Shown piece after piece: positions 44,636 through 64,000 of a DNA stretch of 64,000 nucleotides. The stretch is taken from NCBI GenBank assembly GCA_048937405.1, contig JBHLNF010000003.1, positions 32,001 to 96,000 of the forward strand, read 5' to 3'. The notes beneath the pieces were generated by a model. It was given only the letters and a program-made list of their open reading frames with translations. It was not told where the DNA came from and searched no databases. The translations under genes were made by a program, and so were the position numbers. The DNA is from Promethearchaeota archaeon. Its GTDB lineage: Archaea; Asgardarchaeota; Lokiarchaeia; Sigyniarchaeales; SOKP01. Within the stretch, counting starts at the first letter, position 1; every line of letters begins with the position of its first letter.

Positions 44636-45052
44636 TTATTCTGCCATTTCTTTAGCTTTAGCTTTTTCTATAGCGGAAATTTCTTTTTGTAAAGCTTTAA
44701 TTTCTGATTGAACTGCTTTAACGCTAGCTTTCTTCTCCCCTTCAATTTCTTTCAATTTAGCGTTTAAAGCTTTTTCTTTTTCACTTTTTAAGGTTTTAAG
44801 CGTTTTATCTGCCTCTTTTGCAGCAGTAATTCTTTCTTTCTTTTTAGCAGCCCATTCTGCTGCTTTCTCAATAGCTTCCTCTTTTAAACCTTCTGCGTCT
44901 TTCAACTTTGCTTCAGCATTCTCAATTTTAGGATTATATTCCCCTTCTATTTCACTTTCTGCAGAAGCCTCTTTTTTAGATGCTTCTTCTTCAATACGAG
45001 TAATTTCATCTTCTTTGGCACTAATTTGCCCTCTTAAATTTTCTTCGGACAT
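44636..45052 (-). CDS. Ala/Glu/Lys-rich all-coiled-coil protein
   Basis: 138 aa of continuous heptads, almost no aromatic residues. Confidence 0.7.
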   Translation of the reverse strand: MSEENLRGQISAKEDEITRIEEEASKKEASAESEIEGEYNPKIENAEAKLKDAEGLKEEAIEKAAEWAAKKKERITAAKEADKTLKTLKSEKEKALNAKLKEIEGEKKASVKAVQSEIKALQKEISAIEKAKAKEMAE

Positions 45053-48803: not shown

Positions 48804-49802
48804 TTAGTTTTTATAATCTTTCAGATAACTGTGAATTGTTTTAAATTTTTCAAGAGAAGAGATAATTCTACCCTCTTTCAATAATTTTAAACCTTCATCA
48901 TTTAATTTTGTAATAGAATTCTTAAGCTCTTTAAACTTAAGTTGTTCCTGAAGTATTTTAAGTAATTTGGAATATTCCTCTACAGTCTCGTTTTCTTTTA
49001 TTGATTCAGCAAGTTGAATAATTTTTTTGCTATTTTTGATTGCATCTTTAAAATTCTTCTTATCTTGGAGGTATTTAACATCATTAATTAATTGTTCTAT
49101 TCTGAGTAAGGTCTTTTGATACTCTTTTTCAGCATTTATAACATCATTTTCAATAACTCTTATTTCTTTTAAATAATCAGTAATCTCGTTTTCTTCCAAT
49201 TCTTTAATAAGTTCACTTAACTTTTCCTTTAAATCTTCAAAAAGATATTTCTCCTTTAAAATAATGCTTTCTTCTATTAAATTTCCAGACTTTTCTATTA
49301 GTTCTTTTCTAATTTTCGATTTTAAAGCGTTATTTTCATACTTCTCCCATTTGCTCTTTATTTTATCATCATCAAGATCAGAAATTAGGTTTTTAGCAGT
49401 TTCTAATATTACTTCTGTTTTTTTAAAATCGTCTAATTTTAGAGCTATATTAAACTCGCTTTCTAAATGACTTAATTCTAATTTTATTTTCTTAATTTTC
49501 TCAAGTCTTAACTTTTCTTGTTCAACCCTGATTCTTTCTCTTTCGTTTTCTTCTCTTTCTTTTAAGATCTTCTTGATTCTATCAATTAAACTTTCTTGCT
49601 CTCTAATAAACGATCTTAAGTCTTCCAGTTCAGCTAATTCTATGATTTCATAAGCAAGAAATAATGCTTCGTTCAACTTTCCTTTCATATATGCTTGTCC
49701 TTGAATTGCAATTTTGTCATCAATTTCAGAAATTATCTTAATCTTTCTTTTTTCTTCTTTTTCTTCTTCTGCTTCAATTTCCTCGGATCTTTCTTCAGCC
49801 AA
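48804..49802 (-). CDS. Helical-repeat/coiled-coil protein, paralogous to the rod of the upstream gelsolin-domain protein
   Basis: Aligns by eye with residues ~120-540 of 49806-51428. Confidence 0.7.
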   Translation of the reverse strand: MAEERSEEIEAEEEKEEKRKIKIISEIDDKIAIQGQAYMKGKLNEALFLAYEIIELAELEDLRSFIREQESLIDRIKKILKEREENERERIRVEQEKLRLEKIKKIKLELSHLESEFNIALKLDDFKKTEVILETAKNLISDLDDDKIKSKWEKYENNALKSKIRKELIEKSGNLIEESIILKEKYLFEDLKEKLSELIKELEENEITDYLKEIRVIENDVINAEKEYQKTLLRIEQLINDVKYLQDKKNFKDAIKNSKKIIQLAESIKENETVEEYSKLLKILQEQLKFKELKNSITKLNDEGLKLLKEGRIISSLEKFKTIHSYLKDYKN

Positions 49803-49805
49803 TTT

Positions 49806-51428
49806 TTACACCTTATAGGCTTGTAATTGATCTATAATTTGTTCAAAAAATTTTAATGACTTTTCAAAGGAACCCTTATCTAAAGCGACTATACCATTTT
49901 TACTTAAAAATTCAATATTTTCTAAAAGTCGTCTAGCGGTATGAAATTTTGTTTTGAAATTATCCCATTTATCAATAATATCATCATCAACTAATTCATT
50001 AAGGATTTTTTCACTCTTCTCAAAAACTTCATTTGCGGCTTTTATCTCCATCCTTTTAATGTTTAAAGTAATTATTTTTTCTAATTTTGAGAGTTCTTCT
50101 TTCAATTTATTTTGTCTTTCTTCAAATTCTTTCCTTTTTTTAATTTGTTTTTTAGATTGTTCTAAAATATTTTTATAATTATCGATTACTTCAGATTTGT
50201 TTATAGATTTTCCTAATTCAATGATTTTTTCACAATCTTTGATAACTTCTTCTAAAAGAGTATTTTTTTGATTATTTATAATATTATTATCTAACCTCTT
50301 AATTTCTTCTAATGTCATATTATATAGTTCTTCAGCAGAATCAATTTCTTTGGATATCACCTCTAATTTGTCACGATACTCTAAAAAATCTATGGATTCA
50401 ACTTCTTTTATTAAGGTCTCAATTTTTGTTTTTATTTCATTGTATAGATACGCTTCCTTTAATTTTATTATCTCTTCAGAAAATTTCTCGAATCTATTTA
50501 TAAACTCGATTTTGTCTTTTGCCTTTTGGATTTTTTTATGAAATTCTTCCCATTTATTCTTAGTCTTTTTTTCAATTAAATTAGATATAAGATTCATTGC
50601 TTTATCATAGATTTCAGTAGCTTCTGAAATCTCCAAGTTATCTATAGATTCATTAAAATCTTTTTCTAATATGGAAAGATCATTTTTTATTCTTTCTTGT
50701 TCAGCTTTCCACTTCTTTTTTTCTTTTAAAATTAATTCTTTAGCACTCGGAACTAGAGTTAGATCATATACTTTCTCATATTTTTCTCTAAAGAATTCGA
50801 CTAACTCATGAGCACTTAATATATTTTTTACGTTTATTAACTTGTTATATTCCTTTTCAATTCTTATTGTTTCTTGTTCAATTTCAGATATGATCTTTTG
50901 ATTCTCATATTTCTCAGTTAATTCTGATAATAAAGTTTCTTGTTCTGTTTTAAGTGCATCATTTTGTATTTTTTCTGCTAATCCCATTATTTCTTTCAAT
51001 AGCTCAATTGCATTTTCAAAATCTTCAGATTCTATAGATTTTTCTGATTTTCCTTTTAGATCATCTATTTTTTCTAATACTGGTAGTACAGTTTTTTCTT
51101 GATATTCAATAATCTCATATAATTCATCTTTTGTGATATTTAAATTCTTGAAAAATTCATATGGTTCTGATCTCATCTCAAATGTAATATTTCTGATAAT
51201 TCTAAATTGAGGAAATTCTTCCTTTAACAACACTCGAATTTGGGCAACATGGTTTTTTAGAGTTTGAGTTGCATTTCTTCCTATCCAGATATACATTGTT
51301 TTTATTTTCTGCATATGGATAGCTAAAATATTAACAATTGTGAATACATCTTTTATGTTTTCATAAGCAATCTCATCAAAAGTCCCGTCATAATTTAATT
51401 TGAAGGTTTTTATTATATTTTCAACCAT
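49806..51428 (-). CDS. Gelsolin-like domain fused to a long helical-repeat rod
   Basis: First ~95 aa contain NILAI...MYIWIGRNA...FEMRSEPYEFF (gelsolin-repeat pattern); remainder alpha-helical. Confidence 0.65.
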   Translation of the reverse strand: MVENIIKTFKLNYDGTFDEIAYENIKDVFTIVNILAIHMQKIKTMYIWIGRNATQTLKNHVAQIRVLLKEEFPQFRIIRNITFEMRSEPYEFFKNLNITKDELYEIIEYQEKTVLPVLEKIDDLKGKSEKSIESEDFENAIELLKEIMGLAEKIQNDALKTEQETLLSELTEKYENQKIISEIEQETIRIEKEYNKLINVKNILSAHELVEFFREKYEKVYDLTLVPSAKELILKEKKKWKAEQERIKNDLSILEKDFNESIDNLEISEATEIYDKAMNLISNLIEKKTKNKWEEFHKKIQKAKDKIEFINRFEKFSEEIIKLKEAYLYNEIKTKIETLIKEVESIDFLEYRDKLEVISKEIDSAEELYNMTLEEIKRLDNNIINNQKNTLLEEVIKDCEKIIELGKSINKSEVIDNYKNILEQSKKQIKKRKEFEERQNKLKEELSKLEKIITLNIKRMEIKAANEVFEKSEKILNELVDDDIIDKWDNFKTKFHTARRLLENIEFLSKNGIVALDKGSFEKSLKFFEQIIDQLQAYKV

Positions 51429-51530
51429 TAAATTTCCTCCGAACTTATCATAACAAAATAGTTAAAGAATTTGCTTTTAAAGGTTTGCGAATAGAAAGGA
51501 GGAAATTACGCTATAGTTCCATCTTATAAT

Positions 51531-54456: not shown

Positions 54457-57400
54457 ATGAGTAAAATAAAACAGGAACCAAATGAACTTAAATTGTCTAA
54501 TATGAAAAACAAGGAGAGATTCTACAACATAAAATTATCAAAAATTACTAATAAAAATAGGCTTTGTCAATATAATGGACAATTTAATGAAATTAGAAGA
54601 TTTAGGCAATGGCTATATAGAAATAATCTGTCTTTTTTAAAATTTAAAGAAGAGTTGCAAAATATCTGGAGTATTTTCAAGCGATATGAAGAAACTAAGA
54701 TGTACACCACACATGATCTTCTTTTTATGAAGATAATTAGACAACGAAATATTAATTCCTCCTCACTTATCATCTCTAAAGAATTCCATTCTATTTTGAA
54801 TAAAGAGAAAATGCAATTGTATCAATTATTAAAAAGAATTTCTGAAAATTATAAGCATCAAACTCATGTAGGGTTTTTAGATTATTATTCTTCAGATAAT
54901 CAAGAAAGACCTATTACCTCATCAAGTGCAAGTGGTCTATTAACTAAAGAAATAGGATGGAAACAAAATCGAATTATTCCCTATGATGATCCAACAAGTA
55001 GGGAAGTATGGGAGGAAAACCAAATTCTAGAATATCACCTTGCACAAAAAGAAGAAATTACTCAAAAACGCTTATTGGAAAGAAAAAAACTTTATAAAAA
55101 AGATCTGCAAATACAAAAAAAACTCGAAATAGAATACCGAACAAAATTAGATGAAGTCTCTAATGATTTACGTTGGATAAGATTGTTAAACAATAATAAT
55201 GATTTTAATGTTATATCAATTCTCAAGGAAAAGGAAAAATTTGAACACTTTTTTGTAGAAAACAACTTACCAGATCAAGAGTATATTGCTTTTCTTAGAC
55301 TATATAAGGAGATAAAAAAAAGATATAATTTTTTAAAAAAAATCGGATACCAAAAACACACTTCGTTATCATATAGAGAGGCTCAGTTAAATTTCCTAAA
55401 AGAACAGGAATGTTTAATTAATGATTATTTTAATGGTATTAAAAGAAATAATGAATTTATAAAGCAAACATCTTCTTTCAATAAACAAGCCCGTCAATTT
55501 ATTAGAAACATTATTAAAAATAATTCCTCTCTTAATTTAACTTCAGAACACCCAGAATTCTTGTTTATTAATCATGATAAAGAAAAGATTGAGAAAATAC
55601 CATATTACTTAGATTGTATAAACGATTTGTTGATTTTAGCTCAAAATAGAAAATATGTTAAAAAAATCTTGACAAAGAATATTAATTCTATTAAAATACA
55701 GAAGAAGAACAATCATAAAAAACAAGAGAAATCATCAGAAAAAGAAAACCTCTATTCAAAAAAAATTTTTAAAAATAAATTTGCCAAAAATTTTGTGAAA
55801 TCTTTACCTTTGATAAGTTTGGTTTTGGTACCTCTTTTAATGGTGTTTTCTCCTGGAGATAACTTTTATTCTGGATATTTATTAACTTACTTTCCTTTTA
55901 TGCAAGTTCTAATCTTTACTATTTGTCTTTTAATATACACTTGGGATCTAGTTTTGTCAAAAGCTCAATTATTATTTGTTACAGTATCGCCGATAATTCT
56001 TTTTAATCTTATAGTACTGATCAGTGAAATTTTCGGAGCGAGAGTATCTTTGTATATAACTCCAATTATGCTGATCCCTTCATATTTTGTATTAAGAAAT
56101 ATCCCTAAAAAAATCGAACGTGAATCTGAAAATTTAAAGCATTTATACCACAAAAGTAAAATATTAATTCTGTGGGTTTTGCTATCTATATCTTTTGTTC
56201 TTTTTTGGATAATTTTTGTTTTTTTTCCACGACTTCTATTTGTACCTGCATTTATAATAATTGTATCTATTGTTTTGTTTACTAAAAAATGTAATTATCA
56301 AAAGAGCAGAATTGTTGACCAATTAAAGAAAAAGTACTTTGACTATCGCTATCGAAAAAGTTCTCAAAAAGAGTTTTCATGCTATAATGCGAACAATTAT
56401 AGAGCCGCCCTATTAATGGCAATATTTCTTGTATTTATGCCATTACTTTTCTCAATTAATTCTATTGTTCGTATTGACTGTCCAGATCTTCAATTTTCGC
56501 GAATACCCCAGGATTTAAGACTTAAAACAAGTGATATAGATTATGATAACTTAGAATATCTTTCTTCACTCGATGTATTAGAAGACTTATCATTCAATGG
56601 CAAGTTTATTGCAAGATGCCAAATATCACCTAATTGGGGTGCAAGCGCTTCAATTAGAGTTCGCTTAATACCTAAAAACGTGACTCCAGTAGAAGGGTAT
56701 CAATTAAAAAAATTCTATGATATTTATTCCAAAGATAAAACAGGTCCTTTAAAAAATTATAGTCTAATTACTCATATTTCATTAAACGAATTAGATCTAT
56801 TACCAGGGAAATATGAGGCAAAGGTATACTACACTGAAATATCAGGATTTTCATATAGAATTGCTGAACCAAAAATATATGAAGTAACGTTAGAAAAAGA
56901 TGCCTTGAAAATCCTACCCACCCACCCATTTGATTTAGGAGAAGATGTAAATTACGGAGCGGTCTATACTTTTGAATATGAAAATTCCTGGAATATCACT
57001 TTTGATGGGAGATTAACAAATTCATTGGAAGAAGGTATTCAAGCAAATTTAACCTTATTTCTTGAGGACCATAACAAATGGGTCAATATTGCAAATATTA
57101 CCACGACAGAAAATGGCTCATTTTTCTTTGAGTATGCAAAATTTGGCTCCTTCGAGGTAAATGCGTTGGCTAAAATTGAGTTTGCGGGGGATGATCTTTA
57201 TGAACCCCTTATGTACGAAGAATATGCGGGACTTGAATTTTCCATTGATGGAGGAAGATTTTTTAGGGATGAGGATGGAGATGGGTATCCTGATTGGCCA
57301 TATAGTTTGTATGATTTGCTTGAAGCGCTAAAAGCGCAGGATGAGTATTATTCGAATGCTCTCGATTTTTTTGATGAGTTTGATACGGGGTACGGTTCTA

Positions 57401-60400
57401 CCACAACAGAAACCATCCACGGTTATACCGGTACCTTGAACGGCAATACAGCATGGGGATCGGGTGTTCGGGATTACGGACTTGTTCTTGATGGAGATGG
57501 TAATATTATGTATGATATCAATGAGTTCTTTAATATCTATATGTATGCTACTTATTCAATTCTTTCCTATGAATATTTTAGTGGTGGTGGAACATATGGA
57601 TCAACAGGTTCACCGACCACCACTTCCAGCGAGATAAGGACAGCGGGTGGTGAACCTGTAGCTGAGATATATTCTGCCCAGACTGCACTGGATATCAATA
57701 GAATAGTGGGTGGTGGGGGTAGCTTTGATAGCACCTTATCGGCGGGAACCGTAGCAAATGTAAATAGGGACATATACATAAGTGAATCAACAGAGTTACA
57801 TCCTACATCGTCGACCACAAGTGTTGAGAGAGGTGGTGAGGACTGGTCGAACCCAGGGAATGTGCAGTCCCAGGATAATGTCTACGCTTCTGCCGATTTG
57901 GTAGAAGGTGGTGGGAGCGGTGTTATCATTGAGGATTATGTGGATAGTGATACCTCGGATGTGGATGGGGTACCTGATGAGGGGACCTTAAGTGATTTCA
58001 ATAATATGCAAACGGTGGATGCCACCCATTCGACTATTACCGAGGAGGGTATTGGTGGTAGTGGAGGTACTTTCGGGTATGGGATAGGAGAGGGGAATAC
58101 AGTGACATCAAACGGCTTTTTGTATGTGGCCGGTGTTACGGGTTCCACGATTGCCACCTTTACGGGAGATGGGGTGGTAGAGAGTATTTGGATAGACATT
58201 TATGAGGATTACGGTGGAGTGCTTGATTTTTATCTGGGTACCATATCTGGAACTAGTTTTGTGTTCAAACAGTACGATCCGATTTGTTCTATTGATCCTT
58301 CGGTTGTGGGTTGGCAGGAGTTTACAGCCCCTGATGATTTTACGGCGTTTATGGTGGAAGCGGGGGATGTGTTGGGCTTTTATAGCAGTACCAGTGCGGT
58401 AACGGTAGGAAGATCTAGTTCGGGGTCGTATATGTCCTATCATTACAGTAGTGCGACTCGTCCGTATAGCGGAAGTGTTACGCTTAGCTCTTCGACGAGT
58501 AGGAGATTAGAGATCTTGGCAACGGCAAGTCCGCTTTCGTCTGATTATGTAGCAGAGCAAGAAGTGCAATTTACTGATGTAATGGACTTTATGGCAGTGG
58601 AAGAGCTGTGTATTAACACGGGTAGTATGGGTGCAGAAGACCTGGCGGTGGAATACTGGGACGGAGATTCTTGGGAGGTGATTGCCTCAGATTTAACCGC
58701 ATCAGCCTGGAATAATTATTCTGTGTCATTAGATAGTTCAGCTTTTACGGTTCGTTTTAGCGACGGTACCAAGACGGGAGATACCACTACGCAGGATAGC
58801 TGGACTATCGATGCAATGTTGTTGAAATACTCCGGGGGGGGTGTTAATGAGGATTATGTGGATAGTGATACCTCGGATGTGGATGGAGCGGGAGATCTCG
58901 GAGCATTGGCTGATTTTGATGATATGAAGGCAACAGATAGTTCTTATTCGACGCTGACCGAAACATCTGGATCAGTGGTGTGGTATAATGGTACGACTCC
59001 CAGTGATTTAATATTGGTTACGAGTCCTGATATATCCGGTACAGCGGTAACTTATACCACTTTTAATGAGGGCAATCTTGCTACTGATGATGATGCGTAT
59101 GGAGGTTTTAATATCCAAGACGAAGGTAGTGGGAATCCAACACAACAGGTGTTTCACTATTTTGATTTTGATATATCCGGTCTTGGAATTAGCGGTTCTG
59201 AATTAGACCAATTAATATTTGAGGCGGAGTATTATTTCCACGGTGGTACCTCTCTTGCTCCTGTTTCATCTGCTGATGTGTGGGAAATGGAAGGTAATTC
59301 CATCGATAGCGCTATTATGATTTATGATTGGACTGCATTATCGTGGTCGGTAATGGGGAGTATGGATTTCTTGAATGAAAACAATCTAGCAAATTGGGAC
59401 CAAACCAGTGATACAAATGCCGAGAGACCGTTGATTCGATCTAAAACCTCGGGATTCACGGACGGTCATATTAGTGGTAGTGGAATTATCCGCATCATGT
59501 GTAATATCACAGGCACTTTTCAAGGAACTTCCTATGACGGAGTCGGAGTAGTTGATTATGCTAAAATAGATTTCTGTTACTCCTCGGGAAGTGAGTATCA
59601 ACTGGAGCAGGAGGTACAATTTGAAGACATTCCTGATGAGGCGGATCAGATGCCAATAAAGGAGTTATGTATTAAAACGGGTAGCATGGGAGCGGAAGAC
59701 TTGGCGGTGGAATACTGGAACGGTGATTCTTGGGAAACATTATTCTCAGATCTAACAGCTTCTTCGTGGAATAATATCAGCATCTTAGGTTATCTATCAG
59801 CACCGACCTTTATTATTCGTTTCAGCGATGGTGCCAAAACTTCGGATGTATCAGGAGATGTGTGGAATATCGATGTGGTGTTGATTCATCTTGAGAATTC
59901 CGGCGGCGGAAGTGGTGGAGGAAACTCAGAATCGGATTGTTTACGTATTGATTTAGATTACATTTTGCCCGGAGCGGATCTTATAGAGGGATTAACTATA
60001 GATGGTATTGAGGTTCGCATTGATAGGCACGCAAGTGTAGCAAGTGCTCTTCTGGATTATTGGGTACAGCTACGCAATGCGTCGGGTCCGAAAGGTGATA
60101 ATAAGGCAAGTGCGGTGTACTGGGATGCTACTGACACGGACACCTATACGGTGTATGGAAGTTCGTTCGATGTATGGGGAACATCATGGACGGTAGCCGA
60201 GATTAACAGTGGTGGATTTGGAATAGACATAGTGGTAAACGCAAGTACTAACAGTATTGCTTATATAGATCATGTGATTGTATTGGTGTATTATTCAGGG
60301 TTTGTGTCTGGAAGGGAGTGGCAGAATCCAACAGGTGCGCAGGTACAAGATGATATAGTTACCTTTACAGAGTTTGAGGGATTGATCGAAAGTGAATCTG

Positions 60401-63400
60401 ATTGGTTGAGGTTAACTGATTTTGGCTTTATGATCCCCAGTACGGCAATCATTACCGGAATTGAGGTGGCTATGGATAGGTATGCGAATGTAAGTTCTAT
60501 TTATAGTAATGGTTTGTATTTACTCAAGTCTGGTGTGGAAGTTGGAATTGGAAAAGATATTGGAACTATATGGGACACCGTTGATGATGATAATTATGAT
60601 GTGTTCGGAGGTCCCGGAGAGTTGTGGGATGAGTCGTGGAGTTATTCTGATATTAATGATCCTGAATTTGGGATTCAATTGTCCGTATCTTCTATAGAAT
60701 CTTTTGATAGAAAAGCCTGTATTGATGATTTGAATATAACTATATATTATATCGAGCCGGAAGTTACTGCTGAGGTGTGGTTTGATGCGTTAAATTCCTT
60801 GGCACAAGACGATAATAGCGTCTATGTAGTGTTTAATGCAACGACAGAAAATAGTTCAAATTGGCTACGGTTGAGTAATTTTGGCTTTTCACTTCCCTCT
60901 GATGTGGTTATTAATGGTATTACGGTGGAGGTAGATAGAGCGGCAACTCAGAGTGCTGCGATCAGAGACGGCGAGATCTATCTGCGGAAGACAAGCGGTC
61001 GGGTTGGTGATAATAAGGCAAGTGCCTCGTGGTGGGATACTGTGGATGATGATGTGTATGATAGCTATGGTGGATCAACAGATTTGTGGGGGACTACATG
61101 GTCTTATTCTGATATTAACGATCCAGAGTTCGGAGTGGATCTGTATGTGGAAAATTTCGGAACGGGTGATGTCAATGCCAGTATCGATCATATAGTAATT
61201 ACGGTGGATTATACTCTACTCCCTCAGAATCAGCAACCCTGGGTGAATTCTCACTATGCGGGAGATCAGGATGATGATGAAACTTATGCCTCGTTTAGCA
61301 CGTCAACAGAAAGCAGTTCTGATTGGCTGATGCTGACAAATTTTGGTTTCTCTTTGCCATCAGATGCGGTAATCGATGGTATTACAGTAGAAATAGATAG
61401 GTTCGCAACCCAAGCATCTTCGATTAGAGACGTGGCGGTGTATCTAATGAATACAAGTGGCCCAGTTGGTGATAATAAAGCCAGCGCCTCGTGGTGGGAT
61501 ACCATGGATGATGATAACTACGATAGTTATGGCGGTGCATCTGATTTGTGGGGGATTACTTGGGACTATTCAGATATCAACAATCCTGATTTCGGTATGG
61601 TGATGTATGTGGAGTATCTAGGGTCTATGGCTACTGAAGCCAGAATTGATCATGTTCGTATTATCGTCAATTATACGATTCAGCCTACATTACAGCAGGA
61701 TAGCGGTGTTGTACGTCCTGATGGGGATGTTATGACTCAGTGGAATGCGTCGACAGCAGGGGATCATTATCTCTTACTTAATGAAGGTATTATCGATCCC
61801 ACGGTACCCAATACTAATAGCGGGTATATCTTTACTTCCAGTTCCAGTAGTGGATCATATATTATTGATGAATTTACGATGGAAACACTTGATATCAGCA
61901 GCGGAAATATCACACAAATCGAGATTAAAGTCTACGGCAATGAAACAATAAGTATTGATTCTACCATAGATGTATATTGCGGTGGTAGCTGGCTAGGAGC
62001 GCAACAACTAAATATGGGCACAAACGGATGGTATACCTATACCTGGAATGGGTTAAGTTTATCACAGGCGGATTTAGATGGAATGCAGGTAAAGTTTAAT
62101 TCAATCGTTCCCGATCCGATTCTTTCCAATCCAACCTACGAAGATTTTGATTTTGTACAATACGGAGATATTGTAGATCATATTCTCGGAAGTTCAAATA
62201 GCCAAACCGTAATTACCTCGTGGATTTTTCCAACCGCATTAACTTCAAATGTGAGTGAAAACGGATTGAATAATGTATTTATTTCAAAAAATGGTAATCT
62301 AGAATTGGGAATCAGCGAAGATGGACATCTACAGGTGTATATGAAGACAGTCGGTGCTGAAGCAACCGCCGAATATGGTACTTTTGGAGGAATAGACTTG
62401 GACCAATGGACCTATATTGCGGTGCGATATGATAAGGGTGATGTTGATGTGCTTATCGGGGATGCTTGGTACACCTCGGCAATCGGTGATGTTCCAGAAC
62501 CATGGAACGGTGGTGGAAATTTTATTAGTGGTGCTGAATTTATCATCGGTGCAGAACTTACTAACTATATCTGCTTTACAGGAAGATTAGATGAGGTAAG
62601 TCTGTTTAATCGATCGGTTTCTGATTCAGAGATTGAGCATCACGGTACTCGATCAATTCCTCCCTCACTTGATTTTCATCTTGAGTTTGAAGAAAATACT
62701 GGTTACTCTACCTTCGATTCCGTGCATAATTACGAAGGGACTTTAGAAGGAAATACAGCGTGGGTTAGTGGGTATGATGGTTACGGTCTCAATTTTGATG
62801 GACAGGGTACTATTGTGTATGAAGAAAGATTTGCATCATATATGTATGCCACCTATTCGATTATTTCCTATGAATATTTTAGTGGTGGGGGTAGCTTTGA
62901 TAACACCTTATCGGCGGGAACCGCAGCAAATGTGGATAGGGATTTAGGTAGTAGCAGTACAGAACTTACTCGGTCTCCAGCTACAACGACCTCGGTTGAC
63001 AGAGGCGGTGAAGACTGGTCGAACCTAGAGAATGTGCAGTCCCAGGATAATGTCTACGCTTCTGCCGATTTGGTAGAAGGTGGTGGGAGCGGTGTTATCA
63101 TTGAGGATTATGTGGATAGTGATACCTCGGATGTGGATGGAGTTCCTGATGAGGGGACCTTAATTGATTTCAATAATATGCAGGCATTGGATGTAATATA
63201 TGCAACTATCACAGAGGTTGGTGATAGTGGAGAGGGAGGTACTTTCGGGTACGGGATAGGAGAGGGGGATACAGTGACATCAAACGGCTTTTTGTATGTG
63301 GCTGGGGTTACGGGTTCCACGGTTGCCACCTTTACGGGAGATGGGATGGTAGAGAGTATTTGGATAGATATTTATGAGGATTATGGAGGAGTGCTTGATT

Positions 63401-64000
63401 TTTATCTGGGTACCATATCTGGAACTAGTTTTGTGTTCAAGCAGTACGATCCGATTTGTTCTATTGATCCTTCGGCTGTGGGTTGGCAGGAGTTTACAGC
63501 CCCTGATGATTTTACGGCGTTTATGGTGGAAGCGGGGGATGCGCTGGGCTTTTATAGTAGTACCAGTGCGGTAACGGTAGGAAGGTCAAGCTCAGGGTCG
63601 TATATGTCCTATCATTACAGTAGTGCGACTCGTCCGTATAGCGGAAGTGTTACGCTTAGTTCTTCGACGAGTAGGAGATTAGAGATCTTGGCAACGGCAA
63701 GTCCGCTTTCGTCTGATTATGTGGTGGAGCAAGAAGTGCAATTTACTGATGTAATGGACTTTATGGCAGTGGAAGAGCTGTGTATTAACACGGGTAGTAT
63801 GAGTGCAGAAGACCTGGCGGTGGAATACTGGGACGGAGATTCCTGGGAGGTGATTGCCTCAGATTTAACCGCATCAGCCTGGAATAATTATTCTGTGTCA
63901 TTGGATAGCTCAACCTTTACCGTTCGGTTTAGTGATAGTACCAAGACGGGAGATACCACTACGCAGGATAGTTGGACTATCGATGCAATGTTGTTGAAGT
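54457..64000 (+). CDS. Giant (>3180 aa) 7-TM cell-surface protein with LamG-like and repeated jelly-roll ectodomains (3' end outside window)
   Basis: Frame +1 is open from ATG 54457 (MSKIKQEPNEL...) to the window end, so it is absent from the ORF track. Basic N-terminal ~450 aa; hydrophobic helices at 55801-56470; acidic Gly/Ser/Thr/Asp-rich ectodomain with many N-x-S/T sequons; DEDGDGYPD Ca-type loop (57268-57294); LamG C-part ...WTYIAVRY...FTGRLDEVSLFNR. Confidence 0.88.
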   Translation, partial: MSKIKQEPNELKLSNMKNKERFYNIKLSKITNKNRLCQYNGQFNEIRRFRQWLYRNNLSFLKFKEELQNIWSIFKRYEETKMYTTHDLLFMKIIRQRNINSSSLIISKEFHSILNKEKMQLYQLLKRISENYKHQTHVGFLDYYSSDNQERPITSSSASGLLTKEIGWKQNRIIPYDDPTSREVWEENQILEYHLAQKEEITQKRLLERKKLYKKDLQIQKKLEIEYRTKLDEVSNDLRWIRLLNNNNDFNVISILKEKEKFEHFFVENNLPDQEYIAFLRLYKEIKKRYNFLKKIGYQKHTSLSYREAQLNFLKEQECLINDYFNGIKRNNEFIKQTSSFNKQARQFIRNIIKNNSSLNLTSEHPEFLFINHDKEKIEKIPYYLDCINDLLILAQNRKYVKKILTKNINSIKIQKKNNHKKQEKSSEKENLYSKKIFKNKFAKNFVKSLPLISLVLVPLLMVFSPGDNFYSGYLLTYFPFMQVLIFTICLLIYTWDLVLSKAQLLFVTVSPIILFNLIVLISEIFGARVSLYITPIMLIPSYFVLRNIPKKIERESENLKHLYHKSKILILWVLLSISFVLFWIIFVFFPRLLFVPAFIIIVSIVLFTKKCNYQKSRIVDQLKKKYFDYRYRKSSQKEFSCYNANNYRAALLMAIFLVFMPLLFSINSIVRIDCPDLQFSRIPQDLRLKTSDIDYDNLEYLSSLDVLEDLSFNGKFIARCQISPNWGASASIRVRLIPKNVTPVEGYQLKKFYDIYSKDKTGPLKNYSLITHISLNELDLLPGKYEAKVYYTEISGFSYRIAEPKIYEVTLEKDALKILPTHPFDLGEDVNYGAVYTFEYENSWNITFDGRLTNSLEEGIQANLTLFLEDHNKWVNIANITTTENGSFFFEYAKFGSFEVNALAKIEFAGDDLYEPLMYEEYAGLEFSIDGGRFFRDEDGDGYPDWPYSLYDLLEALKAQDEYYSNALDFFDEFDTGYGSTTTETIHGYTGTLNGNTAWGSGVRDYGLVLDGDGNIMYDINEFFNIYMYATYSILSYEYFSGGGTYGSTGSPTTTSSEIRTAGGEPVAEIYSAQTALDINRIVGGGGSFDSTLSAGTVANVNRDIYISESTELHPTSSTTSVERGGEDWSNPGNVQSQDNVYASADLVEGGGSGVIIEDYVDSDTSDVDGVPDEGTLSDFNNMQTVDATHSTITEEGIGGSGGTFGYGIGEGNTVTSNGFLYVAGVTGSTIATFTGDGVVESIWIDIYEDYGGVLDFYLGTISGTSFVFKQYDPICSIDPSVVGWQEFTAPDDFTAFMVEAGDVLGFYSSTSAVTVGRSSSGSYMSYHYSSATRPYSGSVTLSSSTSRRLEILATASPLSSDYVAEQEVQFTDVMDFMAVEELCINTGSMGAEDLAVEYWDGDSWEVIASDLTASAWNNYSVSLDSSAFTVRFSDGTKTGDTTTQDSWTIDAMLLKYSGGGVNEDYVDSDTSDVDGAGDLGALADFDDMKATDSSYSTLTETSGSVVWYNGTTPSDLILVTSPDISGTAVTYTTFNEGNLATDDDAYGGFNIQDEGSGNPTQQVFHYFDFDISGLGISGSELDQLIFEAEYYFHGGTSLAPVSSADVWEMEGNSIDSAIMIYDWTALSWSVMGSMDFLNENNLANWDQTSDTNAERPLIRSKTSGFTDGHISGSGIIRIMCNITGTFQGTSYDGVGVVDYAKIDFCYSSGSEYQLEQEVQFEDIPDEADQMPIKELCIKTGSMGAEDLAVEYWNGDSWETLFSDLTASSWNNISILGYLSAPTFIIRFSDGAKTSDVSGDVWNIDVVLIHLENSGGGSGGGNSESDCLRIDLDYILPGADLIEGLTIDGIEVRIDRHASVASALLDYWVQLRNASGPKGDNKASAVYWDATDTDTYTVYGSSFDVWGTSWTVAEINSGGFGIDIVVNASTNSIAYIDHVIVLVYYSGFVSGREWQNPTGAQVQDDIVTFTEFEGLIESESDWLRLTDFGFMIPSTAIITGIEVAMDRYANVSSIYSNGLYLLKSGVEVGIGKDIGTIWDTVDDDNYDVFGGPGELWDESWSYSDINDPEFGIQLSVSSIESFDRKACIDDLNITIYYIEPEVTAEVWFDALNSLAQDDNSVYVVFNATTENSSNWLRLSNFGFSLPSDVVINGITVEVDRAATQSAAIRDGEIYLRKTSGRVGDNKASASWWDTVDDDVYDSYGGSTDLWGTTWSYSDINDPEFGVDLYVENFGTGDVNASIDHIVITVDYTLLPQNQQPWVNSHYAGDQDDDETYASFSTSTESSSDWLMLTNFGFSLPSDAVIDGITVEIDRFATQASSIRDVAVYLMNTSGPVGDNKASASWWDTMDDDNYDSYGGASDLWGITWDYSDINNPDFGMVMYVEYLGSMATEARIDHVRIIVNYTIQPTLQQDSGVVRPDGDVMTQWNASTAGDHYLLLNEGIIDPTVPNTNSGYIFTSSSSSGSYIIDEFTMETLDISSGNITQIEIKVYGNETISIDSTIDVYCGGSWLGAQQLNMGTNGWYTYTWNGLSLSQADLDGMQVKFNSIVPDPILSNPTYEDFDFVQYGDIVDHILGSSNSQTVITSWIFPTALTSNVSENGLNNVFISKNGNLELGISEDGHLQVYMKTVGAEATAEYGTFGGIDLDQWTYIAVRYDKGDVDVLIGDAWYTSAIGDVPEPWNGGGNFISGAEFIIGAELTNYICFTGRLDEVSLFNRSVSDSEIEHHGTRSIPPSLDFHLEFEENTGYSTFDSVHNYEGTLEGNTAWVSGYDGYGLNFDGQGTIVYEERFASYMYATYSIISYEYFSGGGSFDNTLSAGTAANVDRDLGSSSTELTRSPATTTSVDRGGEDWSNLENVQSQDNVYASADLVEGGGSGVIIEDYVDSDTSDVDGVPDEGTLIDFNNMQALDVIYATITEVGDSGEGGTFGYGIGEGDTVTSNGFLYVAGVTGSTVATFTGDGMVESIWIDIYEDYGGVLDFYLGTISGTSFVFKQYDPICSIDPSAVGWQEFTAPDDFTAFMVEAGDALGFYSSTSAVTVGRSSSGSYMSYHYSSATRPYSGSVTLSSSTSRRLEILATASPLSSDYVVEQEVQFTDVMDFMAVEELCINTGSMSAEDLAVEYWDGDSWEVIASDLTASAWNNYSVSLDSSTFTVRFSDSTKTGDTTTQDSWTIDAMLLK
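57829..58828 (+). repeat. Long intragenic direct repeat, copy 1
   Basis: Near-identical to 63001-64000 at a constant offset of 5172 bp (57901/63073, 58201/63373, 58801/63973). Confidence 0.92.
63001..64000 (+). repeat. Long intragenic direct repeat, copy 2 (continues beyond window)
   Basis: See copy 1; weaker homology extends back to 62668 versus 57361. Confidence 0.92.

Follow-up and report, generated by a model that had tools for sequence, protein, structure and literature searches.

To our knowledge, the characterised actin regulators of Asgard archaea are profilins and small gelsolins only, and no cross-linker or spacer is known among them. Asgard gelsolin domains bind actin, and the one named ProGel occupies the groove that separates subdomains 1 and 3 of actin (PMC7444086). 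The Thor protein 1DGelX binds and severs actin without calcium, and its domain X is predicted to be helical or coiled-coil (PMC7444086). In L. ossiferum, precipitation of Lokiactin also brings down five proteins with gelsolin domains (PMC13716822). The present analysis concerns two adjacent genes in a stretch of 64,000 nucleotides (nt) from a Promethearchaeota archaeon (assembly GCA_048937405.1, contig JBHLNF010000003.1, positions 32,001 to 96,000), called the window below. Gene 1 encodes a gelsolin-type head on a long, predicted helical rod and gene 2 a protein related to that rod, without a head. Lengths of proteins are given in amino acids (aa).

The two genes are arranged head to tail, both on the minus strand:

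49806..51428, minus strand: gene 1 (P0001), gelsolin-headed rod protein of 540 aa (open reading frame with ATG start; AlphaFold predicted local distance difference test, pLDDT, 89.8)
48804..49802, minus strand: gene 2 (P0002), headless paralogous rod of 332 aa with about five repeats (open reading frame with TTG start)

At the junction the TAA stop codon of gene 1 is followed by three nucleotides, AAA, and then by the TTG start codon of gene 2. An earlier note, made from the letters of this stretch, had described two reading frames with a 3-nt gap, and they are present as described. It had also claimed a gelsolin-like repeat at the N-terminus of gene 1, about 440 aa of helical repeats behind it and a colinear relation between gene 2 and that rod, and these three claims are borne out by the profiles, alignments and predicted structures presented below. 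The pair is tentatively read here, at somewhat less than even probability, as a two-gene operon for an accessory module of the Lokiarchaeial cytoskeleton, which would be an actin-linked spacer or tether in which the number of heads would be set via the headless partner at the end bundles.

The gelsolin fold is located in the first 97 residues of gene 1:

51138..51428, minus strand: gelsolin-homology head, residues 1-97 (profile, AlphaFold, VIA-align, Foldseek)

A profile of 81 diverse heads (A3), compared with the PDB sequences, matched villin (expectation value, E, 1.2e-7), the Thor ProGel 7C2F (E 2.5e-7, full length), adseverin (E 9e-5) and the Loki 2DGel (E 9.7e-4), and nothing significant outside gelsolin domains. 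The head profile found 82 clusters among 1.8 billion representatives, with the domain N-terminal in nearly all of them and protein lengths from about 50 to 1417 aa. Single-sequence searches (phmmer) were not significant, with E values in the range 0.05-0.9 (Pfam 0.05, PDB ProGel 7C2F 0.87). The motifs YIWIGRNA...SEPYEFF of the head are the W-x-G and E-x-x-F signatures of gelsolin repeats. W48 does not vary among 81-116 diverse members, and G50, R79, E88 and F92 show little or no variation.

The AlphaFold model of full-length gene 1, based on an alignment of 116 sequences, has a pLDDT of 89.8, with the head region at about 85-90. In this model the head has strands at residues 6-11, 17-20, 34-39, 44-49 and 79-84, a long helix at 55-71 and a short helix at 90-96. 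The elements follow the order of the fold, beta-beta-(alpha)-beta-beta-long alpha-beta-short alpha, with a mixed sheet between the long and the short helix. The VIA-align comparison of the head model with ProGel (PDB 7C2F) gave Z 12.5 and a root-mean-square deviation (rmsd) of 1.9 Å over 88 of 88 residues, at 20% identity. The next 14 rows are all gelsolin-family proteins (adseverin, gelsolin, fragmin, villin and Asgard 2DGels) with Z 10-11.7. Foldseek gave a template modelling (TM) score of 0.72 normalised to ProGel, with matches nearly all from the gelsolin family, and the ESM Atlas shape search of the head was concordant with this assignment. The Foldseek matches were already nearly all of the gelsolin family with a first, head-only AlphaFold model built on a shallow alignment of 37 close orthologs (pLDDT 60.7). 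Judged by profile and predicted fold together, the head is a gelsolin-homology domain of the ProGel-like kind.

The Pfam gelsolin model PF00626 gave no match to P0001 and matched 6 of the 81 heads, with a best E of about 1e-3, and the matches to PF25466 and PF25480 were weak. Since PF00626 stays below threshold, the sources label the orthologs hypothetical or coiled-coil, and routine annotation misses the module. The head is the most conserved part of the gene 1 protein, with a mean column identity of 84% compared with about 55-64% in the rod. Conservation so far above that of the rod fits the expectation for such a head, which would bind a very conserved partner. The type-II calcium site was not found: the Glu at the start of the long helix in villin domains aligns in the HMMER alignment with L57, which is invariant in the orthologs. 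The site is absent in ProGel too (PMC7444086). With the calcium Glu replaced by an invariant leucine, as the site is also missing in ProGel, the head is predicted to dock independently of calcium.

A helix behind the head, at residues 100-133 (51030-51131), carries the invariant positions Y104, Q110, E111 and P116 and is common to all headed relatives regardless of rod length. It may belong to the functional head, at the place where 2DGels carry a WH2-like motif.

Residues 100-540 of gene 1 form a rod that is wholly helical in the AlphaFold model, with 14 helices alternating between long (34-47 residues) and short (15-19 residues). They make up seven repeats of about 63 aa, the first residues of which are 100, 157, 227, 287, 349, 412 and 482:

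50961..51131, minus strand: R1, type C, residues 100-156 (helices 100-133 and 137-153; R1 resembles R5, E 6.6e-6; includes the conserved post-head segment with E111 and P116)
50751..50960, minus strand: R2, residues 157-226 (helices 157-199 and 203-218; roughly a part missing from gene 2)
50571..50750, minus strand: R3, type A, residues 227-286 (helices 227-263 and 267-281; R3 resembles R6, probability 98.6%, E 6.8e-16)
50385..50570, minus strand: R4, type B, residues 287-348 (helices 287-325 and 329-346; R4 resembles R7, E 3.1e-7)
50196..50384, minus strand: R5, type C, residues 349-411 (helices 349-388 and 392-408)
49986..50195, minus strand: R6, type A, residues 412-481 (helices 412-458 and 462-478; roughly the second part missing from gene 2)
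49809..49985, minus strand: R7, type B, residues 482-540, the conserved C-terminal bundle (helices 482-517 and 521-539; aligns with the C-terminus of gene 2)

When the profiles of these repeats were compared, they fell into three types, ordered in an A-B-C super-repeat of about 190 aa. This super-repeat explains the internal BLAST match as well as the length classes of the relatives, in which proteins with 4, 7 and 10 repeats are 345, 540 and 737 aa long. In the predicted model, neighbouring repeats have continuous helices in common, which gives a chain of small three-helix bundles, each built from the last part of a long helix, a short helix and the first part of the long helix that follows. 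The connectivity of the modelled rod is spectrin-like, a description that makes no claim of family membership, and the helix lengths give an estimated rod length of about 20-25 nm. The first and last bundles are conserved, the rod ends being the most conserved parts of the rod. The annotation of an ortholog in one source as a coiled coil of the classic two-stranded kind differs from the model, a single-chain prediction in which the 14 helices, of 15-47 residues, fold back with regular turns.

Local structure matches of the rod were found to an MIT domain (residues 114-178), to designed bundles (371-426 and 440-495) and to plectin plakin/spectrin repeats (358-507), with Z 8.5-9.4, in the range below about 13 that is unspecific for helical bundles. 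The MIT match covers 65 residues at 1.8 Å rmsd (Z 9.4), and the tandem MIT domains of calpain-7 were also matched. The matches of the rod to MIT, TPR and designed repeat proteins are neither strong nor specific enough for a family assignment.

The relation between the two genes is evident both from pairwise comparison (BLASTP, 35% identity over 185 aa, E 8e-22) and from comparison of the ortholog alignments (hhalign, probability 99.9%, E 6.2e-33, 314 colinear columns). All four pairs of sequence blocks quoted in the earlier note fall inside the latter alignment. Residues 12-332 of gene 2 correspond to residues 106-540 of gene 1, with two repeat-sized gaps at about 177-237 and 431-497 of gene 1. 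On these alignments, gene 2 is a colinear paralog of the gene 1 rod, minus the head and two repeats. Its most conserved part is the first 75 residues or so, and its C-terminal bundle is conserved as well:

49578..49769, minus strand: conserved N-terminal module of gene 2, residues about 12-75 (most invariant columns of alignment A5; EK..KRKI, QGQ, SF..Q)

The N-terminal module was also detected in partners from the genus g4. More than 60 orthologs of gene 2 have a length of about 332 aa and the same start position. The ESM Atlas feature search with gene 2 gave sub-threshold matches only.

Two other accounts of the gene arrangement were rejected. Read-through of the stop codon would give one protein of 874 aa. 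The two genes share a frame in the window, but they do so in only 3 of 9 loci of the window's genus and in 4 of 14 loci of g4, which is the chance rate. A split-gene or pseudogene origin is ruled out by the fact that both reading frame lengths are kept in dozens of genomes.

More than 120 homologs of gene 1 were found in Lokiarchaeial assemblies, nearly all of exactly 540 aa and with identities down to 45%, and several sources give the orthologs of genes 1 and 2 adjacent locus tags. A search of genome contigs for related loci yielded a single, partial locus. Of the 301 phylum genomes covered, only those of the window's family (f1) and its sister family (f2) gave strong matches to the head type (E < 1e-24); the weaker head matches elsewhere among these genomes are other gelsolin proteins. 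A headless rod gene comes after the headed one on the same strand at about 23 f1 loci, with spacers of -31 to about +116 nt, mostly below 30 nt. The length pairs found in the genus are 540 + about 332, 345 + 331 and 737 + 328 aa, and outside it about 350 + about 380 aa in g4 and 775 + 704 aa in g6. Within the genus 10 genomes have both genes and the other 10-11 (88-100% complete) have neither, but these genomes are kin and the pattern may reflect few evolutionary events.

The syntenic site (fumarase / methyltransferase-aconitase) in pair-less relatives holds nothing in one case and unrelated genes in two, and is therefore a hotspot of gene turnover. A protein of about 665 aa, peptidase-like by eye, is encoded at this site at L050 1582-3579 and L048 3749-5737, and one of these two loci also holds two further enzyme-like genes. 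In the congeneric genome G243 (L049, G243:C180, 1624-1872) an in-frame remnant of 81 codons joins residues 1-21 of gene 1 to about residues 264-332 of gene 2, and the upstream region of gene 1 is kept. The remnant is that of a single deletion removing both genes, and the pair therefore behaves as one dispensable unit. The two genes lie side by side with little space between them and are passed on, or lost, together. The adjacency, the short spacers, the strict co-occurrence and the co-loss favour a joint function.

Five proteins of the actin family were identified in the genome, and for two of them E is about 1e-130; the best actin is encoded at G000:C25:219075-220187. Three more gelsolin-domain proteins are found in the same genome. 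They consist of a gelsolin-homology domain with a disordered linker and a SAP-like C-terminus (361 aa; L003 1489-2574, C9), a gelsolin-homology domain with a helical domain (403 aa; L004 1477-2688, C17) and a two-domain gelsolin with a C-terminal zinc ribbon (338 aa; L005 1411-2427, C14).

In the spacer or tether reading, the head of gene 1 would dock on Lokiactin without calcium control, and its rod would hold a fixed distance of roughly 20-25 nm as a stiff spacer. The headless partner would bind the headed rod via the conserved end bundles and not along the whole length, and this association would set the number of heads per assembly. The outcome would be either a tether from actin to another structure or a cross-linker holding filaments at a fixed spacing. 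Several observations weigh against such a mechanism. Gene 1 rods of 4, 7 and 10 repeats are paired with partners of 328-392 aa, with no matching of lengths, and this combination of varying rod length and constant partner length argues against a simple in-register dimer. AlphaFold and ESM Atlas both predict self-contained monomeric rods, and no headless partner is detectable downstream of the headed rods of family f2. A search for long fused forms with the gene 2 N-terminal module found none, a weak point on the same side. ProGel binds rabbit actin very weakly (dissociation constant 337 µM), and gelsolin folds that do not bind actin exist, as in Sec23 (PMC7444086). About half of the genus lacks the module, which is therefore dispensable.

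Some of these observations would be expected if no heterodimer is formed and the two proteins act separately, for example with gene 1 homodimers as cross-linkers and gene 2 as an independent scaffold or as a dominant-negative regulator competing for the same non-actin partner. The lengths of the partners do not covary, both rods are predicted to be stable monomers and the headed rods of f2 are without a partner. This explanation is nevertheless considered unlikely, given that the genes stay adjacent and tightly spaced throughout the family and that co-occurrence is perfect in the genus, although the argument is weak in that co-regulated independent functions would give the same pattern. The stepping of the rod lengths by three repeats (345, 540 and 737 aa, or 4, 7 and 10 repeats) suits another arrangement, in which the rod lies along the Lokiactin filament like tropomyosin or nebulin, the head caps or severs at the end and the headless paralog coats or competes on the same lattice. 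Rod length in three-repeat quanta would then measure filament segments, and a headless paralog with the same repeats could fill the same sites. A side-binding C-terminal extension has been proposed for severing by Thor 1DGelX by Akil et al. (PMC7444086). However, a periodic actin-binding motif of basic or acidic residues did not emerge, and it is the rod ends that are most conserved rather than a motif recurring in every unit. This arrangement is considered quite improbable.

The remaining explanation is that the protein does not act on actin at all, the gelsolin fold having been recruited for another ligand as in Sec23/24 and the MIT-like chain of bundles serving as a scaffold for, e.g., ESCRT-III-type or membrane-associated partners. 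The matches of individual rod bundles to MIT domains (Z 9.4) and to the tandem MIT domains of calpain-7 point in this direction, but a Z below about 13 is unspecific for helical bundles. Also in favour of it, the head has diverged so far that the Pfam gelsolin model misses it, and ProGel-type heads bind actin weakly (PMC7444086). On the other hand, the best structure and sequence matches of the head are all to actin-binding gelsolin domains, led by an Asgard protein that was crystallised on actin, and Sec23/24 is not among the top structural rows. A role away from actin is considered decidedly doubtful.

The spacer or tether reading can be extended to a rather unlikely proposal, that Lokiarchaeia evolved their own counterpart of alpha/beta-spectrin or alpha-actinin. 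Headed and headless rods would then assemble via their end bundles into cross-bridges, either between Lokiactin filaments or from these filaments to the envelope, the distances being fixed in three-repeat quanta (4, 7, 10). A gelsolin domain on a spectrin-like rod, together with a headless partner, is in any case a concrete candidate for the role of an Asgard actin cross-linker or spacer. The range of the pair, one order with a patchy presence within the genus, points to a lineage-specific elaboration and not to an ancestor of the eukaryotic cross-linkers. The system lends itself readily to experiment. The two proteins are small and look soluble, Lokiarchaeia are available in culture, there are antibodies to Lokiactin, and the close relatives that are naturally without the pair, or that carry the deletion scar, are natural knock-outs.

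The window is AT-rich (guanine plus cytosine, G+C, about 27%) and belongs to a genome of 4.47 Mb in 29 contigs, the closest protein matches of which are annotated Promethearchaeota/Lokiarchaeota. Putative expression signals were found at both genes:

49809..49814, minus strand: AAGGTG, a Shine-Dalgarno-like site for gene 2 within the last two codons of gene 1 (sequence reading; putative function)
51429..51530, minus strand: intergenic region upstream of gene 1, with GGAGG at 51436-51440 and an A/T-rich, TATA-like box at about 51474-51481 (sequence reading)

The GGAGG lies 7 nt ahead of the ATG of gene 1, and the A/T-rich box is a putative promoter element. The neighbours are housekeeping genes. 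Upstream, the same strand carries the gene of a class II fumarase; downstream there are a convergent methyltransferase, an aconitase and a DUF6125 gene. Since such genes are found on both sides, the operon is limited to genes 1 and 2. The Rfam search of the window gave no match. Three genes downstream, adjoining the DUF6125 gene, 44636-45052 on the minus strand encodes a protein of 138 aa that is rich in Glu, Lys and Ala, probably all-helical and without a Pfam match. In the part of the window at 54457-64000 the G+C rises to 0.36-0.44 from about 56 kb onwards; this part is not rRNA and is blank in Rfam.

Of the described proteins ProGel (PDB 7C2F; Akil et al. 2020, PMC7444086) resembles the head most closely. 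Both have a single gelsolin/cofilin-type domain of about 90 residues with W-x-G and E-P-x-x-F, and both lack the type-II calcium Glu. ProGel is a stand-alone protein of 94 aa, whereas the domain described here is carried on a rod of 440 aa and accompanied by a headless paralog, and the identity is 20-26%. The eukaryotic gelsolin, villin and adseverin match the head by profile (villin 1.2e-7, adseverin 9e-5) and by fold (Z 10-11.7), but they lack a rod, are under calcium control and contain three or six gelsolin domains in tandem. Full-text literature searches gave no description of a headed rod with a headless partner, nor of Lokiarch_48210, an ortholog in Lokiarchaeum GC14_75.

One gelsolin domain followed by a non-gelsolin C-terminal part is found also in 1DGelX/GelX (Thor KXH72031.1, Akil et al. 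2020; L. ossiferum B35_GelX, bioRxiv 10.1101/2025.11.30.690169). The GelX-like proteins compared here (286-361 aa), which come from this genome and from other Asgard genomes, differ in having a Pro-rich disordered linker, a small globular or SAP-like domain and no headless partner gene. The rod profile had no match in GelX-like proteins from eight loci. Compared in sequence with GelX-like proteins other than Thor 1DGelX, gene 1 is not of the described GelX type.

In design, the pair is similar to the linkers built of spectrin repeats (alpha/beta-spectrin, alpha-actinin and plakins), which have an N-terminal actin-binding head and three-helix bundles joined by continuous helices, features that are predicted here. 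Spectrin, too, has headed (beta) and headless (alpha) paralogs, which in spectrin work together, and plectin plakin repeats gave a weak structural match to the rod (Z 8.5, 148 residues). The spectrin-like design proposed in the earlier note is apt in architecture, as regards the three-helix bundles, the continuous helices and the headed and headless paralogs. Spectrin differs in its calponin-homology head, compared with the gelsolin head here, and in its repeat of about 106 aa, compared with about 63 aa here, and there is no sequence similarity; the spectrin repeat PF00435 gave no Pfam match to the gene 1 rod at E up to 10. The likeness is thus a resemblance in design and not a demonstrated homology. 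Gelsolin domains fused to other modules are already known in Asgard archaea, and the architecture of rod and headless partner is a variant of these.

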